Of a DNA stretch of 64,000 nt, positions 2,148 through 57,984 are shown in pieces; the first letter of the stretch is position 1; every line of letters begins with the position of its first letter. Under the pieces are notes generated by a model, which searched no databases, was not told where the DNA came from, and was given only the letters and a program-made list of their open reading frames with translations. Source of the stretch: Botryllus schlosseri (lineage: Eukaryota); contig CM119372.1 in NCBI GenBank assembly GCA_051294905.1, positions 21,454,001-21,518,000 on the forward strand, read 5' to 3'. The translations under genes were made by a program, and so were the position numbers.

Positions 2148-4403
2148 ATGTTACATGGCCTTAAACTTTATATGTTTCGGTGCGTCGTGACGCAGTAATA
2201 ACCGACGTCGAAATGCCCATTTCTATAAATCATGCCCATTTTTTCTTGATGAATAGCACCCAATAATCAAGATATTTGTCTACCTTAATTCGCACACAGC
2301 GCGAAAAAATTTGAAAAACTATCCTAAATTTAAAAAAATCTACAATTTATGCTAATTCACGAAATTCACGACCCTATTCGAGCTCCGACCCCCATTTGAG
2401 GGGGTTGGGGTGCGGCAGGTGCGGTCCTGGCCAAATGCCAACACTGGCATCGGCTGCTATTACGTAAAAGGTCCGCACACGGTGGATGTTTCCGAGCAAC
2501 TCATACCGATTCCAATATTTCTTTTTTTTCTAGGCAGTGACACGCAATCCTATCGCGCAGAAAAACTATTTCAAACTTTGCAGTATAAACGCCTCAGGAA
2601 CGCTCCTCACTTGTGAACTAGAAAATCACAGATACCAAGAATTGCGTCCAAACGACAAAAGTTACGGGCTCACTGTACTTGATATGCTATTATAGGTTTA
2701 TTGGAATTATTCCATGCCAGAAAAAATGAGAAATGGACAATTTTCAGTCGCATCCGAATTTTAATTGGCTTCATTCGCACCACGATTGTCCTTCACCCCT
2801 AATTTTTTTTCATTCGCACAAGTGCGAACCGTCACACAGGTTGAAAAGCACTGAACTAGACTACATCATTTCTGTTGAACTGCACCTATGTTTACAATCA
2901 TTCAATGAATAAGTCTTTACATCTAAATGATGAGCTAGCACTCACGCAATTGAATATCGATCATATAGAGTGCGTCAATATTAGGGCGGGACACAATGGT
3001 TCTAGTGCTCGAATACGAATCGAGTATTGATTGTAATAATTCGAATCGAGATATGAGACGCGAATATTTCTAGTACTGGAAATTATACACCTCCGTCTCG
3101 CTGCGCGGTATGTTGCTATCCACGGGAATTATAGTTTTGACACTTTATTCCTGTCGTCATAGCCTTGAAACCACGACTATAGTCGTATCAAGTACAAATA
3201 TACGGACGTTAGTAAAAATGACATTTCTTCGAAGTAATGACCAGCCTGCAGCATTTTCACAAATATAATGAAATAGCTGCGGTCGAAAAAAATCTAAAAC
3301 AAAATTATAATATCTTCAATGCTATATATAGTAGCAAGTAGCCTACTGGCATTACTTTCTGTGTGGTCTCACTTCGCACACAAGGAACATTTTAGCTGGT
3401 GCCCTCCAACCGGTTGTATCGTGCACCCGAGGGCCTTGGGGTGTCATTTTTAACGGGTGTACCACTTTGATGGGGTGTACTAGCGTGCACCAGATACCGC
3501 ATCAACTGTATTCAATACCTTTAGTAATATTTAAAGTCAGACAATGTTACTGTCTGGATACGTGTGACTATTCAGGAACATTAACGAGACAACCGAAAGG
3601 ATAGTTTTACCTTTAGTGCAATTCCCCTGCTCGATTTTCAATCCAGTAGGACACAGTCGATTGCGATATCTGACGTTCTGCATGGAACACTCCGCCCAAT
3701 TTCCCCAACTGACAGTACAAGCGGCATCTGATGTTGGAAGTTATATCATTACGTATGCTAGTTAATAACTACCGCAATGAAGATTGTAAGATCACACTAT
3801 GGTATAATACTGATAATAATCCCACGAGCGAAAGAAATGACAGCCAATCAATTTGTTTTTGGTAATTAGGACCGCATGGGCATAAGGACGAATGATATAC
3901 GATTTTGTGGTGATGGAGGTATTGTGATCTAATATTAAAGACGCAAGAACTATGTGGTATAGGCTAGGGCTCTTCAACCGCGTTTATCGTACCCCCAAGC
4001 TAGGGTGTACCGAAATATTAAAAGGGTGTACCACTTAGATGGGGTATACTGGGGTGTACCATATACTCATTAAAACGGACCAATGACTATAGCTATCACA
4101 GTTTATGTATCAGAACATGTTGACCGAGTATGCAATATCGTACAATGTTCAAATCAACTGTACGCAACTTGTAAATATCATTCCTTTTGTGACATAAGTA
4201 AGCGAATGCTTCTTCTCATCGTTTGAACGTTGGTAATGGACTTATTGGGAATTTGTGAAGTAGAACACGATGGAGTTGACATGTGTTCAGCTTGCGATAT
4301 CTGTCTATAATGATTCTTGAGGAATCCGCCACGAGAGTTCGGACATTTTGAATTGGTTCTTCCTGCGATATGCTTATGAATAGCGCAGTGTACATAATTG
4401 CAG

Positions 4404-5530
4404 GGCTCCGTAGACATATATGAGCAATGGGCATGCGAGATTATAGCATGCGACACTTGGGCATGCGACAATTGGGCATGCGATAGGGCAGTGTTGGGAT
4501 GACTCGAGTCACCTTTTTTGCATGACTTGACTTGACTCGAGTCACTTTGCTAAAATGACTTGACTTGACTTGACTTGACTCGGTGTATCAGAAATGTGGA
4601 TTGACTCGTGACTTGGAGCAAAATTCACGAGTCAATTTCAAGCCATCAATTAATCGGAGTCGATAAAAATCACTGTATCTTGCATATGTTCGGATTGTTC
4701 GCGAAATGCTGGTGTAACCCGTGAGAACGACCAATCATTCAATGACCGTACATTTACGGGGCCTCCATTGTTCTCTCACAAATAAATTGACCACAAACGA
4801 AGTGATCGAAGCTTACAGCTCACCTCGTAGTAAACTAGTAGTAAAGTAATACAATAGAAAATTGTATATTTCTGTTCTCTGTTCTTACCTTAACCAAACC
4901 TCTTGTTTTATTGATTTTGAATTTGAATATAGTTTATAAACTCCTCAATCATTGACGCAGGCTCAAATTGTTTCATATCACCATGTAAATGGGTAAAGGG
5001 TAATGTATTGCATCTTATTAATTCATCTTATCAATTCGGGATACAGCGCCTTCTTGGGTGTATATTCAACTCTATATTCGTTCATCGGTTCAAAAGCAAT
5101 GACCACTCAACCTGTATTACAAACAGCTAGGAAAATGTAATGACGTAATCATCCCTCATACTACGAAATAGCAACTCGACTTGAATTTTGACTTGACTCG
5201 TGACTTGACTTGACTTGACTCGACTTGACTCGAGTCACCTCCAAAAATCGAGTGACTTGACTTGACTCGAGTCATCTTCGAAAACCGATTGACTTGACTT
5301 GACTCGAGTCAAAATGTGCAATGACTCTTGACTCGAAGGTAGTGACTTGATCCCAACACTGGAGGGTAAGTCTAGGAGTAAGGGTATATATAGCATCTAA
5401 TTTCGGGGTTATATTTCGGGTTAGGGTTAGTTTTGGGGTTACAAGGTCACATGCTGAAATGACGCATGCTAAAGTGTTCCATGCTCAACTATCGTTTTCC
5501 ATTGTGTCGCATGGTCATATGTCGGGCAAC
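4404..5530. mobile_element. MULE-like non-autonomous element
   Basis: Flanking direct repeat TAATTGCAG (4395-4403, 5531-5539), degenerate inverted ends with GCATGCGA subterminal repeats, and an internal GGTTAGGGTTAG. Confidence 0.55.
4489..5361. mobile_element. MITE with GACTCGAGTC/GACTT subterminal repeats
   Basis: TIRs CAGTGTTGGGAT / ATCCCAACACTG and arrays of GACTT and GACTCGAGTC at both ends. No clean TSD seen. Confidence 0.75.
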
Positions 5531-11314: not shown

Positions 11315-13384
11315 CAGGGTTGTAACCAAGTCACATGGTTCCGAGTCACGAGTCAATCTTACTTTTGTGGTTTTGATTCGAGTCAAGTCGAGTCATTTTC
11401 AATTCATCACCGAGTCGAGTCCGAGTCCAAGTCACCGTTTAAAGGGTCAAGTCCGAGTCATAGTGTTATGACTCGAGTCCGAGTCCAAGTCACAGTATTG
11501 ATGTCATGTTCAACCCATGTTTTCAATCCTGCTTGGGTGATATCGATTGCCTTGCTTGCCAAACATGTTTATTTTGTCCCTATCAGAGTCTTCGCACATG
11601 TTTATTTAGGCAGATTACGGATAGTTCCTAGCCTCATTTACCGATGCTACAGATAAACGAGACAGGCCGCCAATATGATAACTTTACAAATCTTAGAACT
11701 TAAAAATAAAATATCTGTCTTGTCAGTCCGATACATCACAAATACAAGCATTTAGTTTTTATTACAAGCACATCGACGACAGCTCACAAATAGCTGATTG
11801 AGAACCAACGAATTCAAGTCTACATACTATCTGATGGAGAACCTACGAATTCACGTCAATCAGGTGATAGAGAATCAACAGATGCATGTTTATGTAGAGG
11901 TATTTTCACCAGGCCAGCATGCTGTAAAAGCGTGCATGCAGCTATGTGCACTGTGCAGTGACAAAAGAACAGATACCTTTTGATATTACTAAAGTTTTTC
12001 TCAATTGCATTACGGACTACATCGCAGTTACAGCATTGGAGAAATAATTGTACAATGGGGATGCTAAAAAACATTTTTTCAAAGTTACCGGCTACTTCTT
12101 AAAATTGTTAGATTGCCTAAAAACCAAATTTGTCTCAATTCCAACCGGTAGAAAGCACTGCTATGAGAGAAAATTTTGGATTGATTACGAATAGCGATTT
12201 TCGAATTTTACCGGCTACCTCGTGAAATTGTTAGATTGTGTGAAAATATGATTCATAGCAAATTTGGCTCGAATCCAACTAGAAGAAGCGAAGTTATTAG
12301 ACTAAGATATTTTTGATATGAAAAAATAGTCGGCTCACTACTAGTATGTAATTATATTATATGAAAGAATTTCTCACTAAAAATACTCTATTAATTTTGA
12401 AAACCAAAAATTTCTCCTCTGATATCGTTGATTCAACTTTTTAAGATTTAGCCAGATTCAGTGTTCTTTTAATGCAACATAACAATTTTATCAAGTAGCC
12501 ACCCAGTAAAATTAAAAAGAAGTTATTTCTGAACAGCCCGATTGTACAAACATCGCACAACATTAGCCATTCATTATTACTCACGTGCACAATGCACATA
12601 CCTAACAAAACGTCAAATGGACGGAGGGTATTGTGTGTCTTCACAGACGGTAGATCAAATCAATGATGAATTACAGTTCGATAATACCAAAGTGGAAAGG
12701 AGATCCTCAGATATATTAAAGCGGCATGGCCTTAGAATAAATCCACATCTACTGAATATACGTTCCAATGGTGCACTAGATGCAGGAATTGAGAAGCATG
12801 TTTGAACCTCCCTGAAAAGCATTGAATCCCATTCTTTCTAGTCGCCCAAAAATGCATAGATTCATCGCCTTCGAATCTACACATGAGCTTATCAGTCTCC
12901 TCAAAGTACTTGACCATTTGAGTCATTGCATTGGCTCTAATTGAACTTTGCTTCGATTGTTGCTTGTATAATCGAAAAGTCTTGAGTACTTTGATTGCGG
13001 AGGATCTATTACCTCTTCATCACTGGATGATTTTGTACAATGCATTGCCATGTATACCTTGTCTGTTGTTTTTACGGCAGCATATCTGATATCAGACGAG
13101 TGCAACGAAAGCAGTGGTGACAAATAGCGTTGTCAGCAGAATTCGTCAGATGCTTTGATCTAGCCATTACGATTCGCAAATTTCTTCGTCTTCAAGTCAT
13201 ATAAAATGAGCCAAGTCAATGACTTGGGTCGAGTCACGCGTAATGACTCGAGTACAAGTCGAGTCAATCCAAATATTGACTCGAGTCGAGTCGAGTCATT
13301 TTCCCATTTCAAGGAAATGACTCGAGTCAAGTCGAGTCACAAAAAATTCGTGACTCGAGTCTGACTCGAGTCATTACAACCCTG
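11315..13384 (-). mobile_element. hAT transposon deletion derivative with a transposase C-terminal relic
   Basis: TIRs CAGGGTTGTAA / TTACAACCCTG, perfect TSD AAGGCTAC, GACTCGAGTC subterminal arrays. The minus strand near 12750-12860 encodes HFWA and SIPASSAPLERIFS (hAT dimerisation-domain motif), frameshifted. Confidence 0.9.
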
Positions 13385-13949
13385 AAGGCTACACAGTAAA
13401 TGACGTAGTTAAGCAGTTCTATAGGTATGCGTGAGCGATACAATCCCTTTTTAAATCTATATTTAACTCTGCATTCCTTACTCGATTCAGAATAACTCTT
13501 TATTCCATCTGCGTTCAAGCAACTAAATAAATGCATTTGAATCATGCTACCTCGTTTCGAAAATTCAGATAAATTTTCAAAGTGATGCGATTCACATCAA
13601 ATTATCTCAAATATTCCGATTTCGAGTTAATTTCAAGTCGACAAATATTTTCAGTTTGGTTTGTTATTACAATGAGCGCAATGTACAATGAGCAATGAGC
13701 ATTATATACGCATTATTGAGGTCCCGAATATGGGTATCCCAGTTGATCTTTTAAATATCATATTGCAAGAGCATTCCTTCTGAATTCAGGTATCGTATTG
13801 ATCAGGTAGACTCATATATCTTATATCTTATATATCGGATTATGATCGGATAGTTTTCTGAGAGGAGCTATTTAGAAATGACTCTTATATCACGATGACT
13901 AGAATATGAATCTTACAAAGAACATTTACGATCAAAGACTTTTACACAC

Positions 13950-14024
13950 TTTCCTCATTCGCATCTGTCAACTGCAGCATTGTGTCATTTAATTTCCGTA
14001 TTGCAATATCAACTCCAGCAAAAT
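13950..14024 (-). CDS. Candidate coiled-coil neck exon of the type II membrane protein gene
   Basis: CTATTTTAG acceptor, GTGTGT donor, 75 bp, phase 1/1 like the upstream exons; encodes DFAGVDIAIRKLNDTMLQLTDANEE. Confidence 0.45.
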
Positions 14025-14489
14025 CTAAAATAGATGGAGAAAAAACAGGTTAAAGACAACGATGACACAAGGTCTTGCAAGCCGGGCATAGCAAGATAGG
14101 GATATGTTATGGAACAGGGGTTCTTAAACAGGGCCCCACGGAACCCATGTGAGTAGAAAGCACCGAAGAAGTGGACACGGAATGCAGTGACATTTTACGC
14201 TATTGAAGGCCGAAAACTGTTTCTCAAATCAACATTAAGTAGATATTTCAGGGCGGATTTATTCTACTAGAAAATTTTATACGGGCGCAATTTCGTGACA
14301 AGTGATTCATTGCTTTCAATTTGGTCACCATCCCTTTCAACGAAATAATAGTAAGATAATAATAAAAAATAAAACAAGAGTTGCAGAATTGATTCTAGCC
14401 TTCTTCCCATCTCCCAGCATGCACCTGTGAATATTATCATGCGGGGTGAAGGAGAATTAAAAATAATTATGATATAAATGCAATTTGGG

Positions 14490-15011
14490 CCGGGAGCGGC
14501 GCAATGAGCCAAAAACACATTTTTGTTTTAAATTTATTTCGAATCCAGAAATACCAATGAACTTTAGCAAAACGACGGATGAAAGTAAAACGCATATAGT
14601 TCCAAAGAAAAATGATTTGAAAATTCGAATAAGCACCGCCACTAGAAACGTACCCACAATTAGACTGGCGATGAGGGAAAATGCGACAGTATGAATAAAT
14701 TTAACACCGCGCCAGTTAGCAAGTAACTGAGAACTTTTGAAGAAAAGGGTGGATCAGCAAGTGTCGAAGACCAGTTCACATCCCGAAGGTTGAAATCGTA
14801 ATGAAACTTGCATGAAGATCGCTGCCGACTCGTCGGCCCAACTTGATTATAAGGAATGAAATAAAACCTTGATATCCTCCCATTATTGCCTGGTACTTCA
14901 AAAGATGTTTTAGGGAGTGTTGGTGACGATCTTGCTTCTGCGCACTCTTCTGTTTATTTTTATAAATTTTGTGAAATATGCTTTTGGATATCAGCGGACC
15001 AATGTGCCCCA
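14490..15011. repeat. Unclassified interspersed repeat
   Basis: Segments align by eye with 60940-61018 (CCAGAAATACCAATGA) and 63130-63425 (TTCCAAAGAAAAATGATTT; GTAATGAAACTTGCATGAAG). Confidence 0.6.
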
Positions 15012-15899
15012 TCTAAATTGTCCTAATGCGCCTCGATTGCCCACTTCTCCAAAGCAAAAATATCTCTAAAACTTTAAAATCGCAATCCTACGCCTAGAAT
15101 AGCATACTGGGCGACTAATAACTGCTCCAATTAAGCTTTGTACTTATTTCAAGCACTAAGAACGAGATATACACAGACACACCTAAAACACGATCGAAAG
15201 GTAGCGATGTAAATTTACTCAGGTCAGCCAAATTAAGAATGTTGTCATCTTCTCAAAAAGACAGCGACCTTGGCGAAATGAAACCGCATCAGGATTACGG
15301 CTGATAAGACACTACAAAATCATCGAAGCGAATACGTTTCCTCTCCGATTTCAAAATTATTTACGATGTACCACTGTGCCCCATCTTCTCCTATCATTAT
15401 TATTGACAAAATATCCATTACCCTTAAAATATTTTCACGACGCGTGCGACAATGAAGGTGTGATAGGTGGATAGAAATATATATAGATAAGTCTTGCATG
15501 CCTTCGTGAAATGCATGATTCCAGTCCATATTGGCTACCAAGAGAGAGCTTTTTAACCGTGTGTAGCACCGGTGTACAGTGATAAATGACCCGTATTAGA
15601 TAATGGGCTTTGGACGGTTAAAAATTGTGCTGAAAATCCTAGGTTTGCCAAGACCAGCGTTTGAGGCGAGCTGACAAAGTGCTGTCTCTATCCTAGACAG
15701 GAGGGGTGCGAAATACTTTCATGAGAGCTCAAGGGGTACAGGCGATCAAAAGGTTGAGAAATACCGTTTCAGAACAGAATTTAGGTGCGTGTGGTATTAT
15801 GTGTTAGCAGAATACATATACAATGATAGATACAGTCACACAAGTAGTGTAGTAGATCGGTCGCGAACTAACGTTTTTTGCATGGGGCTCTTATGGGCC

Positions 15900-16860
15900 C
15901 GCTGGTGACTCGTATTGAAAACTCGTGTTGGTGACTCGTACTTTCAGACCCCCCTCTCGCTCGTGATTCGTAATGGGTTCTTATGGATGCGGCGGTGACT
16001 CGTACTTTCGGGTATAGGCTGCGGCGATGACTCGTATTGAAAACTCGTGTTGGTGACTCGTACTTTCAGGTATGGGCTGCGGCGGTGACTCGTACTTTCG
16101 GGTATAGGCCGCGGTCGTGATTCGCCGTGAAAACTCGTGGTCGTGACTCGCCTTTTTTGCTATAGGCGGTGGCGGTGATTCGCCTGTCATGTATTCTTAC
16201 GGGATCTGTGGTGACTCGCTACGTATTCTTATGGGTGCGGTCGCATGCTAACGAGAAACCGGGGGTGGCATGCTAACGTTTTCGGGTATAGGCTCCGGTC
16301 GCATGATAGCGTTACAGAGATAGGGATCGGTCGCATGCTAACGTTTTCGGGTATAGGCTCCGGTCGCATGATAGCGTTACAGAGATAGGGATCGGTCGCA
16401 TGCTAACGTTTTCGGGTATAGGCGGCGGTCGCATGCTAACGTGAAAACTCGTGGTGGCATGCTAATGTTTTTTGGTATACGTGCGGTGACATGCTAACGT
16501 TCCAGTTATAGGGTGATGAAGTGGTGTTTCGACCCCTCCCGGTGGCACGATAGCGTTACGGAGATAGGGATCGGTCGCATGCTAACGTTGTGTCTTGTGG
16601 TCGCACGGTAACCCTTTTCAGTATTGGGATCGGTCGCATGCGGCTTCGTTGTTGGTATGTCGTACTTTGTGTTGAATATGTATCAAGTAAATAGTCAAGT
16701 GATTTTTCCTTAGTTAGTATCATGAATTATTATATACGACCAATTTGAAGTAATCCGAACGTTTACGGCGAGCGCGACTTCGATATATCGTTATTCTTAT
16801 GGACGCGGCGATGATTCGTACTTTCGGGTATAGACTGCGGGCGGTATGTCGTGCTTTTAG
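15900..16860 (+). repeat. Subterminal tandem motif array of the Polinton-like element (mirror copy at 27164-28124)
   Basis: Outer block built on GGTGACTCGTA and inner block on GGTCGCATGCTAACG at ~25-35 bp spacing. A 65-bp unit recurs at 16268, 16333 and 16398. Confidence 0.9.
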
Positions 16861-18399
16861 CAAAAAAGGGTGTGAAATAGTTTGCTAAATCTAGGAATCA
16901 CTTGCTTGGTAATATTTTGGTAATTAGTTTGCCACAGAACCGGCGTAGACGGCGATTCAAATACAAACAATAGCCGCGTTCACATACTAACACTTCAATA
17001 AGGTGTGAAATATTTGTAAAATCCTACGATCGCCAACAAGATAACACCTCAGACATAGTCATCTTTCACGACTTGGTGTCATAGCCATACTGATCGCTCA
17101 CACGGTGAAATTTTAGTAATCAGTTTGTCACAGAACTTGATTTCGCTGGTAAGATTTAATAAGTAACGAATAACAGACCGTCAGTGTCGGTAACTTGAAT
17201 AGCGACAAATTGTCACTTATTTCCGCTCTAACCCTAATCCTTTGTGAAGTGAACGCTTATTCAAAAGGGTGTGATATAATTTTAAAATCCAACGACCACT
17301 CACCGGATAATGCTTCAGACATAGCAATCCCTCATGCCCGCTCACAAGGTAATATTTCGGTAATTAGTTTGTCACAGAACCGTCGCAGACGGTGATTCGA
17401 AAACCAACAATTTGTCACTTGCCCGCGACCGCTATATGTTTCACGCCTCCGGAATAGTGGCTGACTTTAGTTGCGTGATAAGATCTATGAAAATATTCAA
17501 TCAATGCGTTAGTTTGTCAACTTGAAATGAAACTCACTACACAAATCAAGTTGAATCGTATTTGAATGTATTGATTCGATCCAACTCAAATCCTTTGACA
17601 AATCCTATTAACGCGATCTGTTGAATCGAACGTAACCTGAATATTACTGATGCCAACATTCACCCGCATCGGATTATTCACACATTCCGCACCGCTGTTT
17701 TCACACCTATAGAATCAATACCAACTAGCTCAATGAGAATCAGGAATAACAAGTATACAATAATTGTATTTAATACTGAGAAATCAAACGCTTAACAAAA
17801 ACACGCAACTAATCATTTGCCAACTCTAGCATTACCAAAAAAATTCAGGCATTGTTGATTGAAAATCCTTGAGTCCATATCAAAAATGTTATAGTGCAGT
17901 GTCGGAATCCATTCGCGAGATGTACTAAAGGTAAATTCAGATAATCCAAAATGAAATATTTGGACTTTGACATAGTCTGAATTGAAATAAATTGACAAAC
18001 ATGACTACCAACTTTCAATCCAGTCATATTTAGAATTAGATTTGAAACAAGTAATGAAACCTTACAACTCTATTCACGACTGAGTTTTCCGTTTGTCAAA
18101 TAGAGTTTCAGTAATTACTATCGCGATATTTTAATGTGTTACTACACACAATCAAGTCAGTCAATGAAATACCACCTGTTGTGAATATTTCTAACTTGAC
18201 AACCACTTGTGCATGCCACGATCTAGTTGCGACGCGATGAGTTAAATCGGAATATTTCAATCTATTTGTCGAAACCTTGAACAAGCTGTCTGGTTATTTT
18301 TTTTGTTGCAATTGAGATAACGGAAATAGTATTACGTCTCGACATTTTAACATCTTACCATACTCCAAAGAGTCAACAAGGAAAAACCTTGTCACGTAA

Positions 18400-19900
18400 A
18401 TCCGATTGTAACTCACCCAATCAACTCAACAGTATCCGTATGGAAAGTAGTCGAGATTACGCAAGTACATACAATCGCTACAATCTAAAATCCATAGCAA
18501 GTTCGGTTGTAGTCATATACCGCCAACTCGTCTTTTTTGTTCAACTGTGAAAGTAATTACTACTCGGTATACCGTGTAACATAAAGTAATTACTACTCGG
18601 TGCACGCAACTTGAGATTGGTATATGTTGAGAATATACGACATTTGAAAGTCTGACCAACGTAGTTAAGAATTCATTTCTCACGATCAAACGCAGGTGTT
18701 ATATTGAAAATTATCATGATGTAAACATATGGATTGACACAGTGATTTGACATATGTAATAGTTGATCAAGACTTGATTATTAAATTATTCACGGTAATT
18801 AGACCCGATGCTGTGGTAAAGGTTATTATGACAGCAACAAACTTTTCAGTACCATTGTTATTAACATATTGAGTTGCAAAACTATGCGTGTCTGAATTGT
18901 TCTTGATTGGAAAATTATTCCACCTTGGTACAAATTACCCTGCGTATCGCGGATATCAGAAAATATTTTACAAATGTAATTGTTTCCAGTTACCGAGACT
19001 AAAGATGAAACAACAATTTCGTTTACTGATTAACAACCGGCGCAATACTTCATTGTCGGAATCTGCGACGAAGAACTGAAACACATACCCGCATTACCCC
19101 AGTGTCAAGATGTGTGAATTGACATACCGCCGCTTGATTAATGCTTAATCCGTTCGCACCATTTCCCACACACTTTGATCATTACAAAAAACAAATTGGA
19201 ATATGTTTTCTAGACACCTCCTATTCAACTAGGTTTGAGTAATACAGAAAACTCTTGACATTAATAAAATCGAAACATATGCTTCACTGAATACTACAAA
19301 ATGTGGTTGCATTGATGTTCAATGTTTTATAGTAGTGATCATAAATTATCATTTGAATCTTATAAAATTGTAATCATAAAACCAAACCACAGGAAGTCAT
19401 CAAAAGCATATGGCAGGATGTTTGCTCAATGCATCCTAGTTTGGTAAACTGGAATTATTTGTAGAACGCACACCATCAAAGAAAAACACGCAACCACTAA
19501 CACGATTCCTAGTTGAGATTGAACTCCTAGTCATTTTCTACGCGTGCACAACTATAGGGTCGTTTTTCTGGACACAAGACCTAAAATTTTTGAGTTGTCA
19601 AAACGACACACATATTTGTAATTATCACTTACTTGGTTAAAGCTAATGCATCGACGGTAACAACCGACACGGATCATTACTATTTATTTCATAATCATTT
19701 CAACAAAATTACACACACTGTACATTGTTGCTTTTTGCGTGACACGAGAATAAATCAGATCACAACGAACTTAATGTGTATTTTACTCACTCGTCGCATT
19801 ATGGATATTGACCAACATCGTTTCAACGTCGTGCATCGTTTTGCCGAATACGAAATATGTTAGTGTAGCAAATGTTTTAGCGTAACAGAAAACTATTTTC
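18400..19900 (+). pseudogene. Highly decayed protein-primed family B DNA polymerase (pPolB) relic, left arm
   Basis: Collinear motifs: YPY (18433), IPPTRLFCS (18517, cf. LPP...FYS), YHD.....D and LDP at the expected spacing (18712, 18799), YGR (19409, shifted frame) and TDTD (19666, cf. YTDTDS). All but YGR share one frame. Many stops; boundaries approximate. Confidence 0.65.
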
Positions 19901-21559
19901 ACTTTCTTGACTTTTGAAAACAATACACGCGCATTTTGTTTGTGTCAACTATAGTTACTTGTAAGATACGACTGATAATCCCCGCGACTCATACAAAAGT
20001 ATGAAATATATTTACATCACGCAAAGTACTCAACCTTGCACGATATTTTTTGGTACTACGAAACTCAAGAATGATTGCCTACGCTTTCAAAGTAAACAAT
20101 GCTTAGTTAGACTCCACAAACTGTTTTGACGTCGCAAGTGTTTTTGACATGAATGATCCAACGTAGCTTATTATTCACATAGCTCGATACAGCACTAGTA
20201 CTTACAAAAATATCAGAGTTGTTTACACAAAAGTTTGTATATGTACAATATGTGAATACCATGCGTAAGTCCTGCACAACCGCGGTATCTGTCCTAGTTT
20301 AGTCAACACACATTTATTACACCGGATCGCGTAAACTTTCGTAGAAGATAAGCATAGTCACTACTCGAGGGTTCTGGCAATGTCATAGCAATAAACCAGT
20401 TACTCCAACAACAGAGTAGAGTACCTATGTTTTCTAGTCACCATCCTTAAATCTTACACACAAAACAACCAACTTTGCAAACGAAAAGTGCTGAGTCATC
20501 ACATGATTGCCGGCACAACAAAACGACTAGTAGATGGAGCCGTAATAAAAATGTTCCTAACCCTTAGCACACCAGTGACAAATCGTGCAATGGATATGTT
20601 TTGTCGAGTTGTTGTTGAGCGTCAAGTCTTCGTGTTGAACCGAACATTTGAACAGCACAACCACGATCCAATTGTAACCACGAATCTATTTTCATTTTGA
20701 CACAAACTATCGCGTACAGAAAAATAAATTTTCTTTCCTCAACACATACTTGTATCCAATCACTTTCGTCAAACACACAACTCAATAAAATTGTTACTTT
20801 CTACAACATCAAAAGCCCGATTTAGTTGTACATGTAGTTGAGAAATATTTTTATTAATCAAAATCATCGATTTCTGTTCACGGTGTTAGTGTGTGCATGT
20901 CATACCTGTGGGCCCCTCCGTATTAAAATGGACACGACACGACTGAATGTAAGGGGATAGAAGTCTATCGCATCGATTTACATGTGGTCTTCGCTACGGT
21001 TTCATAAAACGAATCATCTATTTTTCATTGGTCGAGACCGAGCGAGTCAGTTACATGTATTCGCAGTAATGATTTTGCTTGCCATATGCGAATGATAGGT
21101 TTGCTACTCCGACAAATCAAATCAACATACAACAATCTTCTGACGATCATAATAGCAATTTCATTTTCCGCCCCTTCGTAATTGTATACGCACGAAAAGT
21201 ATATTGTACAACTCGGCAACTACGTTTAACAAGAGCAATCACACTACCAGCGTTGAACACAAGATACCTACCCAAGTCAAAAATATCATACTGGTTTGGA
21301 CAACTGACGTTTACCTGTGTAAAATTATCATTTTCACTTAGTGATCTATCCTTTCCTAGAGTAACAAACCCTTGTCGTTTACAAATCTATTTTTTTCCTA
21401 CAGCAAAAAACTATTTTCACTTGGAAAAATACTTTTACCTAGATGTGGCTTATTGGTATGACATTGTTATCGGGTGTGATGACATTCGATCTGCATCAAA
21501 ATTACCGGCTATGATAATGTCTGTGGATCGAAGACTTACTCCCCGATGTTTGTATACCA

Positions 21560-21890
21560 ACACATTGCATGCAATGTCACACACCTCCATTTACGCGTAT
21601 ACTGGTGTGGGCAAACAAGCGCGACGTATGTCTGGATGGTATTTTTTCGTGGAAACACAGGGTGTAACATGTTTACTTTGAATATTGTTAATTGGTTATC
21701 GATTCAGAGTTGATATCCGGATCCGGTTACATACTTTATCAGGGTTTCCGATTTCAAACTGAATGTCGAGACATACATTGACCAATAAACACACAATTTA
21801 GTAAACATGCGGGGGAAAACTCGACCTGGAATTGCTATCGCGATGGGTGACATAAATCCAACCGTTTTCCGAATCCCGTTATCCACATAC
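21560..21890 (-). pseudogene. Possible decayed Polinton minor capsid (penton) C-terminal region in the spacer
   Basis: One frame with a single stop reads VGF...LCVYWS...LIKYV...FKVNMLHPV...NTIQ...VTLH. This follows the order and spacing I recall for the family (LGF...YVY.D...LLR.V...F....Y.PV...TI....VTLHF). Confidence 0.4.
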
Positions 21891-22184
21891 CAACCATCGT
21901 CGAAGAGGTGTTTTATTCAGACATTTTGACTCTGGAAAATCCAAAGCACGAACCCAGACATCACAGAGCTATCGAAGTCTATTGTCCAATTTTCCAAAAC
22001 ATGCATTTCGGCGTACAAGAGCATATTGTATGTGGTTAACCGATGATATTGATGTGATACGACTGATGGGGGGTATACTCTGAAACCGGTAGTCCGTGTA
22101 TATTTCCGTCACTGTTCGTTGTAATCTATTTCAAACTATCGTCAATACAACAAATACCAAATTGTCAGGTGTGTTTGTCAGATT

Positions 22185-22750
22185 TCAAAATGAAAATGGT
22201 TTTGTGACTCTAGGAAAAGCTAGATGACTAAGAGAAAATGTATTGTTACACTGGGTAAACGCCAGATCTCCAAAGGAAAATGATATTTTTACTCAGGTAA
22301 ACGACGACCCGCCAAGTGAAAATGGTTTGTTGCTCAGGGAAAAAATATATTTCCAAGTGAAAATGGTTTGTTGCTGATGGAAAAAATATATTTCCAAGTG
22401 AAAAAAATTTGTTACCCAGAGAAAAAATATATTTTACAAGTGAAAAAGGTTTGTTACCCAGGGAAAAATAGATTTCCGAGTGAAAACGGTATTGGTACTC
22501 AGGTAAATGATATTTTTCCAAACGAAAAGGGTTTGTTACCCCGGGAGAAAATATATTTTCAAAAGAAAATGATTAGTTACTCTAGGTAAAAGTATTTTTC
22601 CAAGTGAAAATAGTTTTTTGCTGTAGGAAAAAAATAGATTTGTAAACGACAAGGGTTTGTTACTCTAGGAAAGGATAGATCACCAAGTGAAAATGATAAT
22701 TTTACACAGGTAAACGTCAGTTGTCCAACCCAGTATGATATTTTTGACTT
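22185..22750 (+). repeat. Degenerate ~41-bp tandem array straddling the spacer/right-arm junction
   Basis: Units like AAGTGAAAATGGTTTGTTGCTCAGGGAAAAAATATATTTCC recur near 22314, 22355, 22396, 22438, 22479, 22520, 22561, 22602, 22644 and 22685. Confidence 0.85.
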
Positions 22751-25700
22751 GGGTAGGTATCTTGTGTTCAACGCTGGTAGTGTGATTGCTCTTGTTAAAC
22801 GTAGTTGCCGAGTTGTACAATATACTTTTCGTGCGTATACAATTACGAAGGGGCGGAAAATGAAATTGCTATTATGATCGTCAGAAGATTGTTGTATGTT
22901 GATTTGATTTGTCGGAGTAGCAAACCTATCATTCGCATATGGCAAGCAAAATCATTACTGCGAATACATGTAACTGACTCGCTCGGTCTCGACCAATGAA
23001 AAATAGATGATTCGTTTTATGAAACCGTAGCGAAGACCACATGTAAATCGATGCGATAGACTTCTATCCCCTTACATTCAGTCGTGTCGTGTCCATTTTA
23101 ATACGGAGGGGCCCACAGGTATGACATGCACACACTAACACCGTGAACAGAAATCGATGATTTTGATTAATAAAAATATTTCTCAACTACATGTACAACT
23201 AAATCGGGCTTTTGATGTTGTAGAAAGTAACAATTTTATTGAGTTGTGTGTTTGACGAAAGTGATTGGATACAAGTATGTGTTGAGGAAAGAAAATTTAT
23301 TTTTCTGTACGCGATAGTTTGTGTCAAAATGAAAATAGATTCGTGGTTACAATTGGATCGTGGTTGTGCTGTTCAAATGTTCGGTTCAACACGAAGACTT
23401 GACGCTCAACAACAACTCGACAAAACATATCCATTGCACGATTTGTCACTGGTGTGCTAAGGGTTAGGAACATTTTTATTACGGCTCCATCTACTAGTCG
23501 TTTTGTTGTGCCGGCAATCATGTGATGACTCAGCACTTTTCGTTTGCAAAGTTGGTTGTTTTGTGTGTAAGATTTAAGGATGGTGACTAGAAAACATAGG
23601 TACTCTACTCTGTTGTTGGAGTAACTGGTTTATTGCTATGACATTGCCAGAACCCTCGAGTAGTGACTACGCTTATCTTCTACGAAAGTTTACGCGATCC
23701 GGTGTAATAAATGTGTGTTGACTAAACTAGGACAGATACCGCGGTTGTGCAGGACTTACGCATGGTATTCACATATTGTACATATACAAACTTTTGTGTA
23801 AACAACTCTGATATTTTTGTAAGTACTAGTGCTGTATCGAGCTATGTGAATAATAAGCTACGTTGGATCATTCATGTCAAAAACACTTGCGACGTCAAAA
23901 CAGTTTGTGGAGTCTAACTAAGCATTGTTTACTTTGAAAGCGTAGGCAATCATTCTTGAGTTTCGTAGTACCAAAAAATATCGTGTAAGGTTGAGTACTT
24001 TGCGTGATGTAAATATATTTCATACTTTTGTATGAGTCGCGGGGATTATCAGTCGTATCTTACAAGTAACTATAGTTGACACAAACAAAATGCGCGTGTA
24101 TTGTTTTCAAAAGTCAAGAAAGTGAAAATAGTTTTCTGTTACGCTAAAACATTTGCTACACTAACATATTTCGTATTCGGCAAAACGATGCACGACGTTG
24201 AAACGATGTTGGTCAATATCCATAATGCGACGAGTGAGTAAAATACACATTAAGTTCGTTGTGATCTGATTTATTCTCGTGTCACGCAAAAAGCAACAAT
24301 GTACAGTGTGTGTAATTTTGTTGAAATGATTATGAAATAAATAGTAATGATCCGTGTCGGTTGTTACCGTCGATGCATTAGCTTTAACCAAGTAAGTGAT
24401 AATTACAAATATGTGTGTCGTTTTGACAACTCAAAAATTTTAGGTCTTGTGTCCAGAAAAACGACCCTATAATTGTGCACGCGTAGAATATGACTAGGAG
24501 TTCAATCTCAACTAGGAATCGTGTTAGTGGTTGCGTGTTTTTCTTTGATGGTGTGCGTTCTACAAATAATTCCAGTTTACCAAACTAGGATGCATTGAGC
24601 AAACATCCTGCCATATGCTTTTGATGACTTCCTGTGGTTTGGTTTTATGATTACAATTTTATAAGATTCAAATGATAATTTATGATCACTACTATAAAAC
24701 ATTGAACATCAATGCAACCACATTTTGTAGTATTCAGTGAAGCATATGTTTCGATTTTATTAATGTCAAGAGTTTTCTGTATTACTCAAACCTAGTTGAA
24801 TAGGAGGTGTCTAGAAAACATATTCCAATTTGTTTTTTGTAATGATCAAAGTGTGTGGGAAATGGTGCGAACGGATTAAGCATTAATCAAGCGGCGGTAT
24901 GTCAATTCACACATCTTGACACTGGGGTAATGCGGGTATGTGTTTCAGTTCTTCGTCGCAGATTCCGACAATGAAGTATTGCGCCGGTTGTTAATCAGTA
25001 AACGAAATTGTTGTTTCATCTTTAGTCTCGGTAACTGGAAACAATTACATTTGTAAAATATTTTCTGATATCCGCGATACGCAGGGTAATTTGTACCAAG
25101 GTGGAATAATTTTCCAATCAAGAACAATTCAGACACGCATAGTTTTGCAACTCAATATGTTAATAACAATGGTACTGAAAAGTTTGTTGCTGTCATAATA
25201 ACCTTTACCACAGCATCGGGTCTAATTACCGTGAATAATTTAATAATCAAGTCTTGATCAACTATTACATATGTCAAATCACTGTGTCAATCCATATGTT
25301 TACATCATGATAATTTTCAATATAACACCTGCGTTTGATCGTGAGAAATGAATTCTTAACTACGTTGGTCAGACTTTCAAATGTCGTATATTCTCAACAT
25401 ATACCAATCTCAAGTTGCGTGCACCGAGTAGTAATTACTTTATGTTACACGGTATACCGAGTAGTAATTACTTTCACAGTTGAACAAAAAAGACGAGTTG
25501 GCGGTATATGACTACAACCGAACTTGCTATGGATTTTAGATTGTAGCGATTGTATGTACTTGCGTAATCTCGACTACTTTCCATACGGATACTGTTGAGT
25601 TGATTGGGTGAGTTACAATCGGATTTACGTGACAAGGTTTTTCCTTGTTGACTCTTTGGAGTATGGTAAGATGTTAAAATGTCGAGACGTAATACTATTT

Positions 25701-28181
25701 CCGTTATCTCAATTGCAACAAAAAAAATAACCAGACAGCTTGTTCAAGGTTTCGACAAATAGATTGAAATATTCCGATTTAACTCATCGCGTCGCAACTA
25801 GATCGTGGCATGCACAAGTGGTTGTCAAGTTAGAAATATTCACAACAGGTGGTATTTCATTGACTGACTTGATTGTGTGTAGTAACACATTAAAATATCG
25901 CGATAGTAATTACTGAAACTCTATTTGACAAACGGAAAACTCAGTCGTGAATAGAGTTGTAAGGTTTCATTACTTGTTTCAAATCTAATTCTAAATATGA
26001 CTGGATTGAAAGTTGGTAGTCATGTTTGTCAATTTATTTCAATTCAGACTATGTCAAAGTCCAAATATTTCATTTTGGATTATCTGAATTTACCTTTAGT
26101 ACATCTCGCGAATGGATTCCGACACTGCACTATAACATTTTTGATATGGACTCAAGGATTTTCAATCAACAATGCCTGAATTTTTTTGGTAATGCTAGAG
26201 TTGGCAAATGATTAGTTGCGTGTTTTTGTTAAGCGTTTGATTTCTCAGTATTAAATACAATTATTGTATACTTGTTATTCCTGATTCTCATTGAGCTAGT
26301 TGGTATTGATTCTATAGGTGTGAAAACAGCGGTGCGGAATGTGTGAATAATCCGATGCGGGTGAATGTTGGCATCAGTAATATTCAGGTTACGTTCGATT
26401 CAACAGATCGCGTTAATAGGATTTGTCAAAGGATTTGAGTTGGATCGAATCAATACATTCAAATACGATTCAACTTGATTTGTGTAGTGAGTTTCATTTC
26501 AAGTTGACAAACTAACGCATTGATTGAATATTTTCATAGATCTTATCACGCAACTAAAGTCAGCCACTATTCCGGAGGCGTGAAACATATAGCGGTCGCG
26601 GGCAAGTGACAAATTGTTGGTTTTCGAATCACCGTCTGCGACGGTTCTGTGACAAACTAATTACCGAAATATTACCTTGTGAGCGGGCATGAGGGATTGC
26701 TATGTCTGAAGCATTATCCGGTGAGTGGTCGTTGGATTTTAAAATTATATCACACCCTTTTGAATAAGCGTTCACTTCACAAAGGATTAGGGTTAGAGCG
26801 GAAATAAGTGACAATTTGTCGCTATTCAAGTTACCGACACTGACGGTCTGTTATTCGTTACTTATTAAATCTTACCAGCGAAATCAAGTTCTGTGACAAA
26901 CTGATTACTAAAATTTCACCGTGTGAGCGATCAGTATGGCTATGACACCAAGTCGTGAAAGATGACTATGTCTGAGGTGTTATCTTGTTGGCGATCGTAG
27001 GATTTTACAAATATTTCACACCTTATTGAAGTGTTAGTATGTGAACGCGGCTATTGTTTGTATTTGAATCGCCGTCTACGCCGGTTCTGTGGCAAACTAA
27101 TTACCAAAATATTACCAAGCAAGTGATTCCTAGATTTAGCAAACTATTTCACACCCTTTTTTGCTAAAAGCACGACATACCGCCCGCAGTCTATACCCGA
27201 AAGTACGAATCATCGCCGCGTCCATAAGAATAACGATATATCGAAGTCGCGCTCGCCGTAAACGTTCGGATTACTTCAAATTGGTCGTATATAATAATTC
27301 ATGATACTAACTAAGGAAAAATCACTTGACTATTTACTTGATACATATTCAACACAAAGTACGACATACCAACAACGAAGCCGCATGCGACCGATCCCAA
27401 TACTGAAAAGGGTTACCGTGCGACCACAAGACACAACGTTAGCATGCGACCGATCCCTATCTCCGTAACGCTATCGTGCCACCGGGAGGGGTCGAAACAC
27501 CACTTCATCACCCTATAACTGGAACGTTAGCATGTCACCGCACGTATACCAAAAAACATTAGCATGCCACCACGAGTTTTCACGTTAGCATGCGACCGCC
27601 GCCTATACCCGAAAACGTTAGCATGCGACCGATCCCTATCTCTGTAACGCTATCATGCGACCGGAGCCTATACCCGAAAACGTTAGCATGCGACCGATCC
27701 CTATCTCTGTAACGCTATCATGCGACCGGAGCCTATACCCGAAAACGTTAGCATGCCACCCCCGGTTTCTCGTTAGCATGCGACCGCACCCATAAGAATA
27801 CGTAGCGAGTCACCACAGATCCCGTAAGAATACATGACAGGCGAATCACCGCCACCGCCTATAGCAAAAAAGGCGAGTCACGACCACGAGTTTTCACGGC
27901 GAATCACGACCGCGGCCTATACCCGAAAGTACGAGTCACCGCCGCAGCCCATACCTGAAAGTACGAGTCACCAACACGAGTTTTCAATACGAGTCATCGC
28001 CGCAGCCTATACCCGAAAGTACGAGTCACCGCCGCATCCATAAGAACCCATTACGAATCACGAGCGAGAGGGGGGTCTGAAAGTACGAGTCACCAACACG
28101 AGTTTTCAATACGAGTCACCAGCGGGCCCATAAGAGCCCCATGCAAAAAACGTTAGTTCGCGACCGATCTACTACACTACT
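22581..28181 (-). repeat. Right arm of the 5.6-kb inverted repeat
   Basis: Reverse complement of 15843-21443, with six substitutions seen. Confidence 0.98.
24124..25624 (-). pseudogene. Mirror copy of the pPolB relic, right arm
   Basis: Reverse complement of 18400-19900. Confidence 0.65.
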
Positions 28182-28841
28182 CACACACATACGTCCGGGG
28201 CGGTGAATAATTTATAGATCGTTATCTGTATTTCCCGTGACGCAGAATATCACGTAGTAGGCTAGTACTTGACTATACTTCGATTAGATATAGATAGAAA
28301 TCGTGCAAATTCCAAAATGAACATACTGGCATTATCCGATTTGATTATGTCACAGTGGACATGTGATATGTGTAGATATTATGACTATTTATCTAAATGA
28401 AATATTTAATCGATTATATGCAATTGTCGGCAACCGCTGTAGTCCACGAGGATCGCGTCACTAGTCCGCGACAAATTCATATACTTTTGTAGGTTGGAAG
28501 GTTCAAAATTATAGCGGTGAAGATCATTGATAGAAATTAAATAAAATTCCACATGCCCGTTTCATGATCGAATACCCCACTTTTTCGAATGCAAATTTCT
28601 AGCATCAATATATCTTTGCATAAGAGCTCATTCGTAAATAGATGCACGTTGAACTTTTCCACTGAATAATGCGGCTATGCTATTTTTCTTCGATTTTTCT
28701 CTTGTGGTCGAATTTTTTCAACCATATCTATATTTCATTGTACTTTGGGGCAACGCTGTGGGTTGATCATGAATTCAAAAATATGTTATATTTCCAGTAT
28801 AGATGTGCGATATTAGATAGGAGTCACTAACCTGGACTCAC

Positions 28842-54323: not shown

Positions 54324-55477
54324 GGTTGCCGGTGAACTCAGCCTTACAAACTCGGCCCTCGGTGAACTCGGACCTCGGGAAATTTTGTAATAAAGTGTAT
54401 TAAAACAAGTATTAATATGAATTATTAAACTAATAATGTTATTATCAAGTGATTTGTCAATATTGTAAGGAGGTCAGGGCATGCGTAGATCACGCAGTCA
54501 CGGCGTGATCATATCACGTGATCACGGACTGCGCAAGCGCCAAGCGCGGGAAAGAACGCGACGTTCACATATCGACCACGCGTGGTCGGCTCAGTGTTGA
54601 ATTGACTTGGCGAGGGGCGGATGTGCGACGTTCGACATCCTCGTATCTGTTCATGACATCGTATTGGGTCTTATCGCATTGTACATTGTGTGTGACTTGT
54701 TCAGATTAAAAATATATCCCAACGATTGTTATTGCTCACATATCAACCACGCGTTGTCTGCTCGTTGTTGCAACTGTAGGTTGAGGTGGGGTGTTAGGGT
54801 TGGGTAGGGTAGGGGGGGAGGAAGACATTAGGGTTAGGGGAGTGGAACATTAGGGTTGGAGAAGGGGGACATTAGGTTAGGGGGAAGGAAATATTAGAGT
54901 TGGGGAAGGGGGACATTAGGATTGGAGGAGGGCGATATTGGGGGTGGGGGATATTAGGGTTGGTGGTGGGTTAGGGTTCCAGTTTGGGTTAAGGTATCCC
55001 AAAATTAGGGTTAGGGGAGGAGGGACATTAGGGTTGGGGGAGGGCGATATTGGGGGTGGGGGATATTAGGGTTGGTGGTGGGTTAGGGTTCAAGTTGGGG
55101 TTAAGGTATCCCAAGATTAGGGTTAGGGGAGGAGGGACATTAGGGTTGGGGTTGGGGGACATTAGGGTTGGAGTAGGATATTAGGGTTGGGGAAGGGGGG
55201 ATATTAGGGTTGGAGGAGGGGATAGTCGGGTTGGTGGTGGGTTAGGGTATCCCAAGATTAGGGTGCCCTGACATGAATATCCCCCAGTCGTATTATCTAG
55301 GGTTACCATATTTTGGAAGTCTGAAAAGAGGACCACATTTTCATTTATAGTTTCGGAATTAGTGCGACTGTAGCTTTTGATCAAGACCAAATTCAGTAAA
55401 TTCTGTTTTAATACAAAATTCACCGAGGGCCGAGTTCACCGAGGGCTGAGTTTGTAAGGCTGAGTTCATTGGTAATC
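54324..55477. mobile_element. TIR element (MULE-like ends) carrying a G-rich minisatellite, nested in 53618-56090
   Basis: ~45-bp TIRs (GGTTGCCGGTGAACTCAGCCTTACAAACTC...); flanking duplication GTGTGGAT; the sister copy shows the empty site near 39375-39390. Confidence 0.8.
54781..55265 (+). repeat. G-rich degenerate minisatellite with TTAGGG cores
   Basis: Many units like GGACATTAGGGTTGGGGAGG, plus a ~112-bp duplicated block. Confidence 0.9.
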
Positions 55478-56208
55478 GTGTGGATAACATACATATTGAA
55501 GTATAAAAGCAAGTGTGGTAATGTTTTTAATTTCCGGATATAAAGCTACACAGTATGACATTTTTACGATTCATCATATTTTTTATTATCGTTTACTAAT
55601 CGCGTAAAGTGTTTACACCGTATCCTTTACATCTTCTCCGTATTGCTCTTCGACTAAACTACAGGCATTATAATATGGGGGAGGGCGCCATACCATGATA
55701 TTCACTAAAACGTGCTGTTCGAGTAAACAGAGGATTAGTATCGCATTTCCATATCAATACTATCATTTTTATCCCATGATGCGGACGAATGCCCAATTGC
55801 CCATGCTGTCGAAAATTGGATGCCTCCTGGTATGAATCAATATGAATCAAGCTCGGCAACTTTCGCATAGCTCAATTTACACCTTTTGACAATCCATGTG
55901 AACGGATTACGATCGTTTTCACAACTACTAACTTACTTGAGTAGATTTAAAGTCAACCAATTCTACTTCTACTTCAAGTAGTTTTAGGTTGCTTATTGAG
56001 GAAGTACTTCTACTCGTACTTAAGTAGATTTTTTCGTCGCTACTTCTACTTCTACTTAAGTAGCTTTCTTGACTACTTTGACCACCTCTGCCTATATGTA
56101 CCGCGTCACTCGTTCTCTGTATCGTAAATACGCAGCTTTACACGGAACGCGGCCAGTCCTATACCCGCATATGAATTCAAGAGTGTTTACACAATATTGA
56201 GGACTCAC

Positions 56209-57881
56209 TTTGTAAATCATTTGATCCTTGGTGAAAACTTCATTGATGAGAGCGTATTGAAGATCGACATTGATGCTCAAGGCCATAACGTTGAGCTTTC
56301 TATCATGTTCCCGAAAAGCAATGTAGCGCTCATTCTGGCACGCTTCTACTTCAGTCCAGTTGATCTTCTGATCATCTTCGAACTGGCTTTCAAAACAGTC
56401 TTGATGCTGAGGTATGTCGTAAGTTTGGTTGTAATACTCAACAAATTTTGTTGCAATACTCGGGAATTCCGACTTGGGATATAACTCTTCATATTCCTGA
56501 ATAATTTTTTGTGCTACTTTCAAATATGTGTCTCGACTCTCCATATTCACGTATGGCATGATTAGACTTTGTAGGTTTACCAACAGCGGATCCAGCGGCT
56601 TTGGAATGTGGTATCCCAAATTTACGAGAACTCTCTTCAGGATATCTCCTAGGTTGAAAACTGGCCACTCCGCGAATCCCTCCAGCAGTGTCGTGAATAT
56701 AATATCCATTTCATCTTTTCGGCTGTCCAAAAGTGTGTACGTAACGCGCGATAGATTGATAACAATTAGATTGACCTTTTGATGAAGCGTACTTGCTTCT
56801 GGATGTGCTAATACCGTTTTGAGCAGCAGGAAGTTTACGAATTCGCTCATATTAGATTTTTTCAAAGTGATGTTGGGCTTGTCGAAGTCGATTAATTCTA
56901 TTCCTTCCGCAATTGTGTTGTAGATATTATCGATATCGGTTTTATTGCCGGGGAAAAGGTTGTAGTAAATCCCTGGCAACCATGTAACCAGCAAATTCAT
57001 ATCACCCGACAGTGGTTGTTGAAAGAACGAAACGTAAAGCCTGGTCAAAGCTGATGACAATCTCTTCGTCGCCGGCGTCAGCGTGCTCTCTTGGGATAAA
57101 AGCTTGGCGGACCAATGAAACGGATAGTAATAGTTGCCGCTAGCCATATTCTCCACCAAATCAGGCGTGCTGTCCATAATTGGATTCAGATATCCTGAGT
57201 ATTCTTCTGGAATTTTCATATTCTTCTTCATCGTGCTCATAACCCTCATCGTGGATTGCCTGGGCTTGTTAATGTTAACGTCTCCGAGTAGTTCGAAAAA
57301 CACACCGTACCATTTGTCGACTTGTAAGTATTTCGGCAGAATGGACTTGATTAGTCCCGGCAAATTATTCACCAGCGACGAAAAAACCGACTCGTGAAAT
57401 TCCTGTATGTCTTCGGGTCCCATGAAATTACCCAGAAAGGAGTAAATCTGAGATGAAATCTTCGCCTCTTTGGTGTCGAGCTGTCCCAAAGCTCCCGTAA
57501 TGTCCGCTATCACCGCATCCAGCTGCTTAATCCAGTCTGTTATATAGTAAGGGCCGGGTGAGGGAAGTGTGAGATTCACCAACTTCACAAATCCAGGCTG
57601 AAGCGGCAACGCTTTCTCCATGTTAAAACCTAAATTTCCCAAAAGGGTGTAGCATCCGGATATAAAGGATTCGGTTCCAGTTCCGTTCGACAAGAGAATC
57701 CGGAATCTTTCCGTTAAATTCTCTCTGAATTCGTCCATTATGTACTGAATTTTATCATCTAGATCGGGAAGCATGTTGAATACGATAGATGGGTCGAGAT
57801 CGCTGCCCTCGCCAAACAATTTCTCGCAAGTAAGCAGCGGAGAGTACTCTCTCGAAATACACTCGCCGTATTGCATTCCCA
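56209..57881 (-). CDS. 810-aa protein, exon 2 (1,673 bp)
   Basis: Most of the 596-aa ORF; TTTTGTTTTAG acceptor in phase 1 and GTGAGT donor in phase 0 after ...QMIYK. Confidence 0.9.
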
Positions 57882-57984
57882 CTAAAACAAAAAACCTCCG
57901 TAAACTTTTAACAAATGTCTCGCTTTTACATCGTGGTGGTTAGTGGTCCACGTATTGTATATGAACGCATAATTGAATACGTAC

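Follow-up and report, generated by a model that had tools for sequence, protein, structure and literature searches.

A gene-less, near-perfect palindromic element with Maverick-type ends in the genome of Botryllus schlosseri

The stretch analyzed here, referred to as the window, comprises 64,000 nucleotides of the Botryllus schlosseri genome (GenBank assembly GCA_051294905.1, contig CM119372.1, positions 21,454,001 to 21,518,000 of the forward strand) and contains a palindromic insertion at positions 15843–28181 with the ends of a Maverick (Polinton). Self-BLAST of the window revealed a sole long inverted pair, 15843–21443 and 22581–28181, in which the two arms of 5,601 bp are 99.893% identical, with six mismatches and no gaps. 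The arms account for 11,202 of the 12,339 bp of the element (90.8%) and enclose a 1,137-bp spacer, which confirms the dimensions given in an initial annotation of this DNA. The complementarity ends sharply at both the outer and both the inner limits. From the outside in, each arm consists of approximately 0.8 kb of GC-rich 32–33-bp repeats, an AT-rich region of 4.5 kb, and a tandem array with a 41-bp unit; the outermost part (15843–16700) has a GC content of 0.515 and an observed/expected CpG ratio of 1.49. At E ≤ 1e-5, none of the bases of the element finds a match elsewhere in the window, and the element end has no additional copy there. The initial annotation had described an element free of nested miniature inverted-repeat transposable elements within flanks saturated with them; the first part agrees with this result, whereas the second is overstated, as repeats internal to the window account for 12,691 of the 51,661 flank bases (24.6%). 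The arm divergence of 0.11% indicates either a recent insertion or ongoing conversion and provides no safe clock.

The termini, initially given as AGTAG...CTACT, read AGTAGT...ACTACT, the commonest Maverick end motif. CACACA is located directly outside both ends. Across the 51,661 bases of the window that lie outside the element, this hexamer is found 64 times (0.12% of positions), so the flanking match is not due to chance alone. The right flank is a CA run, CACACACA, and a duplication of 2 or 4 bp therefore fits the letters as well as one of 6 bp, while 6 bp is the upper limit at the element ends. Of the exact 6-bp target-site duplication claimed initially, the CACACA copies at both ends are retained, and 6 bp becomes only the longest fit. 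One contig of run X20, a public sequencing run labeled with another organism, aligns to the left flank as far as 15822 and continues with 120 unaligned letters; it stops 20 bp short of the element and gives only a hint of an empty site. The palindromic insertion with Maverick-type ends is a real feature. The coordinates of its parts are summarized in Table 1.

Table 1. Features of the palindromic element and its target site (positions within the window).
Feature	Positions	Strand	Basis or remark
Left target-site copy, CACACA	15837–15842		longest fit 6 bp; 4 or 2 bp also compatible
Left arm, 5,601 bp, begins AGTAGT	15843–21443	+	self-BLAST, end inspection
(AGT)2 Maverick-type end motif	15843–15848	+	motif as in PMC8097293; likely protein-primed origin and integrase end (predicted function)
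GC- and CpG-rich subterminal arrays, 32–33-bp units	15906–16641	+	repeat and composition analysis; mirror at 27383–28118
Arm segment whose summed contig depth is far below that of its neighbors	19300–19969		four of four runs; both arms (mirror about 24055–24724); bounds are bin limits
Polymerase motif-A-like stretch, 12 codons	19411–19446	+	unconfirmed; scores 19.5 bits under the protist-type profile but is not selected by the animal one; sole signal of polymerase type
Span of all six arm mismatches (19535, 19552, 20038, 20354, 21295, 21340)	19535–21340		arm alignment
Mirrored 41-bp array, truncated within a unit at 21443	21269–21443	-	repeat analysis
Left inner junction	21443–21444		likely secondary deletion join, in this copy or its subfamily
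Central 726 bp, unpaired	21444–22169		highly repeated in public runs; no recognized gene
41-bp tandem array, register unbroken at the right inner junction 22580/22581	22170–22755	+	repeat analysis
Right arm, 5,601 bp, terminates ACTACT	22581–28181	-	self-BLAST, end inspection
Right target-site copy, CACACA	28182–28187

Sequence of the window was detected in public sequencing runs in 21 of the 24 listed rows, five of which hold at least half of the words. Runs with a small share of words (marine and other metagenomes) were excluded from the depth analysis, for which contigs from four public runs belonging to four studies were aligned to positions 12600–22620. In all four runs, most bins of the element, including the centre, exceed the flank bins 13605–14274 about 100- to 10,000-fold in summed contig depth, which is not equal to copy number. 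In run X16, three single arm contigs are 8.6–11.7 times as deep as the flank contigs of the same run. The element is thus a member of a family that is highly repeated in arm and spacer alike. The exception within the arm is the segment 19300–19969, in which the summed contig depth falls approximately 8- to 45-fold below the adjacent arm bins in each of the four runs. This segment is likely to be subfamily-specific or diverged, and it is possibly a subfamily-specific segment that was copied into both arms.

The six differences between the arms are unevenly placed, a feature absent from the initial annotation. All of them are located at arm positions 3693–5498, in the inner third, and the outer 3,692 bp contain none. 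This pattern would be expected from correction that proceeds end-first. A mismatch-free outer 3.7 kb could also be accounted for by conversion if a longer Maverick-type element had integrated and one of its ends had then overwritten the other by recombination or conversion, and the flanking duplication would persist through such an event. However, this would require a separate rare event for every copy, yet arm and centre are high-copy in all four runs, and we consider a palindrome formed after insertion very unlikely.

The 41-bp array, whose passage across the right inner junction the initial annotation had likewise not mentioned, distinguishes the two inner junctions. Its register of 41–42 bp is maintained across 22580/22581, and the mirror copy is interrupted mid-unit at 21443, which indicates that the only new join is 21443/21444. 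For 36 contigs of run X1, the alignment begins at 21443 and other sequence precedes this position; the central sequence therefore continues there in many relatives. The right arm, including the array, extends over at least 6,012 bp. The join at 21443/21444 is probably a later one-sided deletion rather than the founding fold-back, and the present copy is probably a shortened member of its family. The initial reading of the spacer junctions as the trace of a one-off copy-back event is probably wrong, as the right junction lies in a continuous array, the left one looks like a secondary deletion, and the family is high-copy. In one X16 contig, 21337 is joined to 22244 on the opposite strand, a structure compatible with relatives whose 41-bp array is shorter.

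To characterize the coding content, frames of the element were compared with several protein and RNA collections. The longest ATG-started frame in 15843–22700 has 70 codons, and Pfam recognized no family on any of the six read-through frames of 16700–22600, in agreement with the initial statement that no intact gene is present. Seven shorter frames gave three Pfam matches, all below the cut-off, and nine frames searched against PHROGs gave one weak match of unknown function (E 0.005). None of ten small open reading frames (ORFs) was found in the protein collection by exact sequence, the best ESM Atlas score for a 101-residue frame was an uninformative 0.75, and Rfam returned no match at E ≤ 0.1 over 15500–22700. 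A tblastn search with 1,228 ORFs from 103 loci, chosen for protein-primed polymerase and mostly phage-type, gave no match at E ≤ 1e-3. Integrase, ATPase, protease and capsid genes were not detected with Pfam or with the 103-locus ORFs, searches that included no dedicated animal profiles and could miss old relics.

The initial annotation had further proposed that the founding event was the copying back of a Polinton end, together with a decayed polymerase region, on itself at 21443/21444. The polymerase sets applied to this question comprised a PRD1 seed, 121 protist-type sequences and, reached through a Maverick-type locus from a contaminated genome bin, 120 animal Maverick polymerases, which form the relevant set. 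With the latter, tblastn against the window yielded no high-scoring segment pairs at E ≤ 1e-2 for any of the 120 queries, and hmmsearch with the corresponding profile found no significant domain. A frameshift-tolerant alignment remained within the controls at two of three settings and exceeded the top shuffle by 1 bit at the laxest one (54.3 versus 53.3), and a chain of conserved blocks chosen blind from the animal profile was matched by 8–17 of 60 shuffles. A profile of 34 mostly invertebrate-type polymerases also found no significant domain. A profile-free search with one minus-strand frame (17500–19569) against 1.84 billion proteins returned one match, a non-polymerase singleton of 64 amino acids that is 88% identical over 34 residues. 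The element reached 25.5 bits against the profile built from the 121 protist-type sequences, compared with 17.0–23.7 bits for 24 controls and 69.2 bits for the PRD1 locus as a positive control. The chain score with this profile was reached by 0–1 of 60 shuffles at each of three penalties, a single outcome from a series of profiles, strands and settings.

The protist-type chain and the motif-A-like 12-mer at 19411 (19.5 bits) speak for a founding copy-back, as does the continuity of the right arm with the spacer beside a new left join, which a template switch would also give. Against it stand the results with the animal Maverick polymerases and the invertebrate-type profile, and the high copy number of the entire element, including the centre. 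We therefore regard this origin as unlikely. The claim of a decayed polymerase region itself does not hold up, since tblastn, hmmsearch, the frameshift-tolerant alignment and the blind block chain all stay at about the level of the controls; a polymerase relic is not shown by these searches, and a very old one is conceivable. Motif-like pieces picked by eye, on the minus and then on the plus strand, were rejected on the basis of the real spacings (160–201 amino acids between motifs A and B, mostly 92 between B and C), and two polymerase motif patterns matched no viral contigs. Animal-type Maverick polymerases were also encountered on contigs binned as bacterial (L090:1-3831 and L091:860-5143; Photobacterium, Amoebophilaceae). 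Their placement in bacterial bins likely reflects host contamination, as many of the top L090 homologues are fish proteins.

The element was compared with known systems. In a survey of vertebrate Mavericks, the commonest end is (AGT)2//(ACT)2, the duplication measures up to 6 bp, the inverted repeats span 46–1,447 bp, and the size ranges from 12.7 to 24.6 kb (Barreat and Katzourakis, 2021; PMC8097293). The element shares with these autonomous Mavericks the ends, a duplication of up to 6 bp, the presence of inverted repeats, and a size near the lower limit. In contrast, its 5,601-bp arms are 3.9 times as long as the longest repeat of the survey (1,447 bp), and none of the 7–8 core genes of the autonomous elements is detected in it. 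The gene searches and the repeat length exclude it from the autonomous Mavericks. The combination of Maverick ends with an absence of detected core genes indicates that it is likely a non-autonomous Maverick.

Non-autonomous Polintons such as Polinton-1N1_DR were reportedly described by Kapitonov and Jurka in 2006. One zebrafish Polinton family may have unusually long repeats, and if it were a whole-element palindrome, the plan observed here would already be known. Non-autonomous Polintons, for which Polinton-1N1_DR serves here as an example by name, would resemble the element in their Polinton ends and in their dependence on a helper; the name of this zebrafish element appears in PMC9341505. 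Butterfly polintons carry repeats of approximately 2 kb that hold the capsid and protease genes, and they have mobile derivatives that lack polB (bioRxiv 10.1101/2025.02.07.637071). They are similar to the element in that the repeats extend inward beyond the usual size, and the polB-less mobile relatives are a further point of likeness on their side. However, the arms of the element are 2.8 times longer, non-coding, and make up nearly the whole of it, whereas the repeats of butterfly polintons form a minority of the element. In C. elegans, the Polinton repeats measure 744 bp and are also found without the genes (bioRxiv 10.1101/2024.01.15.575659), and the anole element has 584-bp repeats, with no non-autonomous copies seen (PMC3014272). 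Among viruses, the snap-back defective genomes of adeno-associated virus (AAV) are likewise self-complementary, carry two copies of one end and depend on a helper (PMC8235507). In contrast to the element, which is chromosomal, bordered by a target duplication and highly repeated, AAV is hairpin-primed and its particles are transient. The AAV snap-back genomes offer the closest viral analogy.

Very long arms with subterminal or internal tandem arrays around a non-coding loop are the classic plan of foldback transposons such as FB and Galileo, and the element may be read as a cut-and-paste foldback element (FB-, Galileo- or Mutator-like) whose likeness to Maverick ends is coincidental. A duplication of 2 or 4 bp and the lack of any detected Maverick gene remnant can be cited for this reading. 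However, the ends of the element are exactly (AGT)2//(ACT)2, whereas FB and Galileo have other ends, cut-and-paste transposases and longer duplications. The duplications measure 9–10 bp in FB and Mutator elements and 7 bp in Galileo, and since nothing longer than 6 bp fits here, membership of the FB, Galileo or Mutator groups was rejected. A foldback family is thus a distinctly unlikely source of the element. The foldback transposons are mentioned in PMC6431247. Ginger transposons, which have TGT...ACA ends, 4–5-bp duplications and 40–270-bp repeats (PMC2836005), are excluded by the ends, the duplication and the repeat length of the element, and their ends and duplications are also listed against the foldback reading. 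A whole-element palindromic Polinton family is not described in the literature searched, the scope of which left out Repbase, Kapitonov and Jurka (2006) and supplements.

We consider it probable that the element, a gene-less and near-perfect palindrome with Maverick-type ends, belongs to a high-copy family that is likely replicated and integrated by an autonomous Maverick in trans. With no detectable genes, the element, if mobile, needs help in trans. The gene set of Mavericks includes a protein-primed polymerase and an integrase of retroviral type (PMC6431247), and the mechanism proposed for Polintons includes a single-stranded, racket-like intermediate (PMC4196379). For adenovirus and PRD1, panhandles have been proposed that restart replication and restore the homology of the ends (PMC11886824). 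In a corresponding model, the protein-primed polymerase of the helper would initiate at an AGTAGT end and displace one strand, and the displaced strand would fold back over 5.6 kb to re-form a double-stranded origin without a partner strand. One arm would thereby correct the other from the end inward, which would keep the outer arms identical. The integrase of the helper would then insert the duplex and duplicate the target. Subsequently, this copy or its immediate subfamily would have lost approximately 1 kb beside the centre, consisting of the inner left arm and part of the loop, to give the 21443/21444 join.

Several observations weigh against this interpretation. Direct evidence for panhandles is still lacking according to PMC11886824. 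The length of the duplication is ambiguous in the CA run, and run X1 possibly represents the window's own sample. As for the placement of the mismatches, only 0.35% of 200,000 uniform draws reach as high a mean position (P about 0.003), a test that involves only six sites and was chosen after the data had been seen; host gene conversion after insertion could yield the same pattern. The 18-nt end motif has no matches among the viral contigs and seven among the metagenome contigs, none of which resembles the element beyond the motif, and no autonomous Maverick with these ends was encountered in the viral and metagenome collections searched. The end-motif match on metagenome contig L001 (1-56, minus strand) runs into sequence at the contig end that resembles a sequencing adapter.

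The contigs also bear on the integrity of the assembly. Among the matches listed for the four runs, none spans the aligned stretch or bridges a junction between flank and element, which is a further point against the proposed helper-dependent Maverick and leaves room for an assembly artefact, in which duplication or collapse of other copies of the family gave rise to one of the arms; assembly is indeed difficult where a high-copy family has very long inverted repeats. However, the flanks are distinct and each meets its arm through a matching copy of the duplication, the arms differ at six sites, and the window is free of any N. A fold-back chimera would extend the mirror into the flank, but the mirror halts at the element end. 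An artefact is thus highly improbable.

A broader proposal, which we put forward tentatively and hold to be doubtful, is that helper-dependent Mavericks of this type constitute a self-correcting satellite class: gene-less whole-element palindromes that would persist as palindromes through a replication advantage of fold-back over the helper, as chromosomal equivalents of defective genomes of the copy-back type. The replication of Mavericks is inferred from gene content, and a family that consists almost entirely of inverted repeats makes the fold-back model testable from sequence alone. The model predicts that arm differences are erased from the end inward and that subfamily-specific segments occur in both arms. 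In the present copy, the six mismatches in the inner third agree with the first prediction, and 19300–19969 is a candidate for the second. If such a class exists, the end-first loss of arm differences would be the footprint of the proposed, unobserved fold-back intermediate and could be read over hundreds of copies. As a probable deletion derivative, the present copy adds less than a full-length member would. The element also indicates that near-perfect palindromes of 12 kb, despite their usual instability, can be common in an animal genome, a point of relevance to assembly and to the annotation of repeats.

Outside the element, the sole long stop-free frame of the window comprises 615 codons on the minus strand (56092–57939) and contains no Pfam family above the cut-off. 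A G-rich tandem array at 54805–55221 consists of about 18 copies of a 22-bp unit, with a higher-order period of 112 bp and a strong G skew. A short self-inverted repeat is located at 13240–13377 and has relatives at 4500–4615 and 5216–5333. The contig depth over 12600–13604 is as high as that in the element, which indicates that this repeat belongs to an abundant small repeat family.

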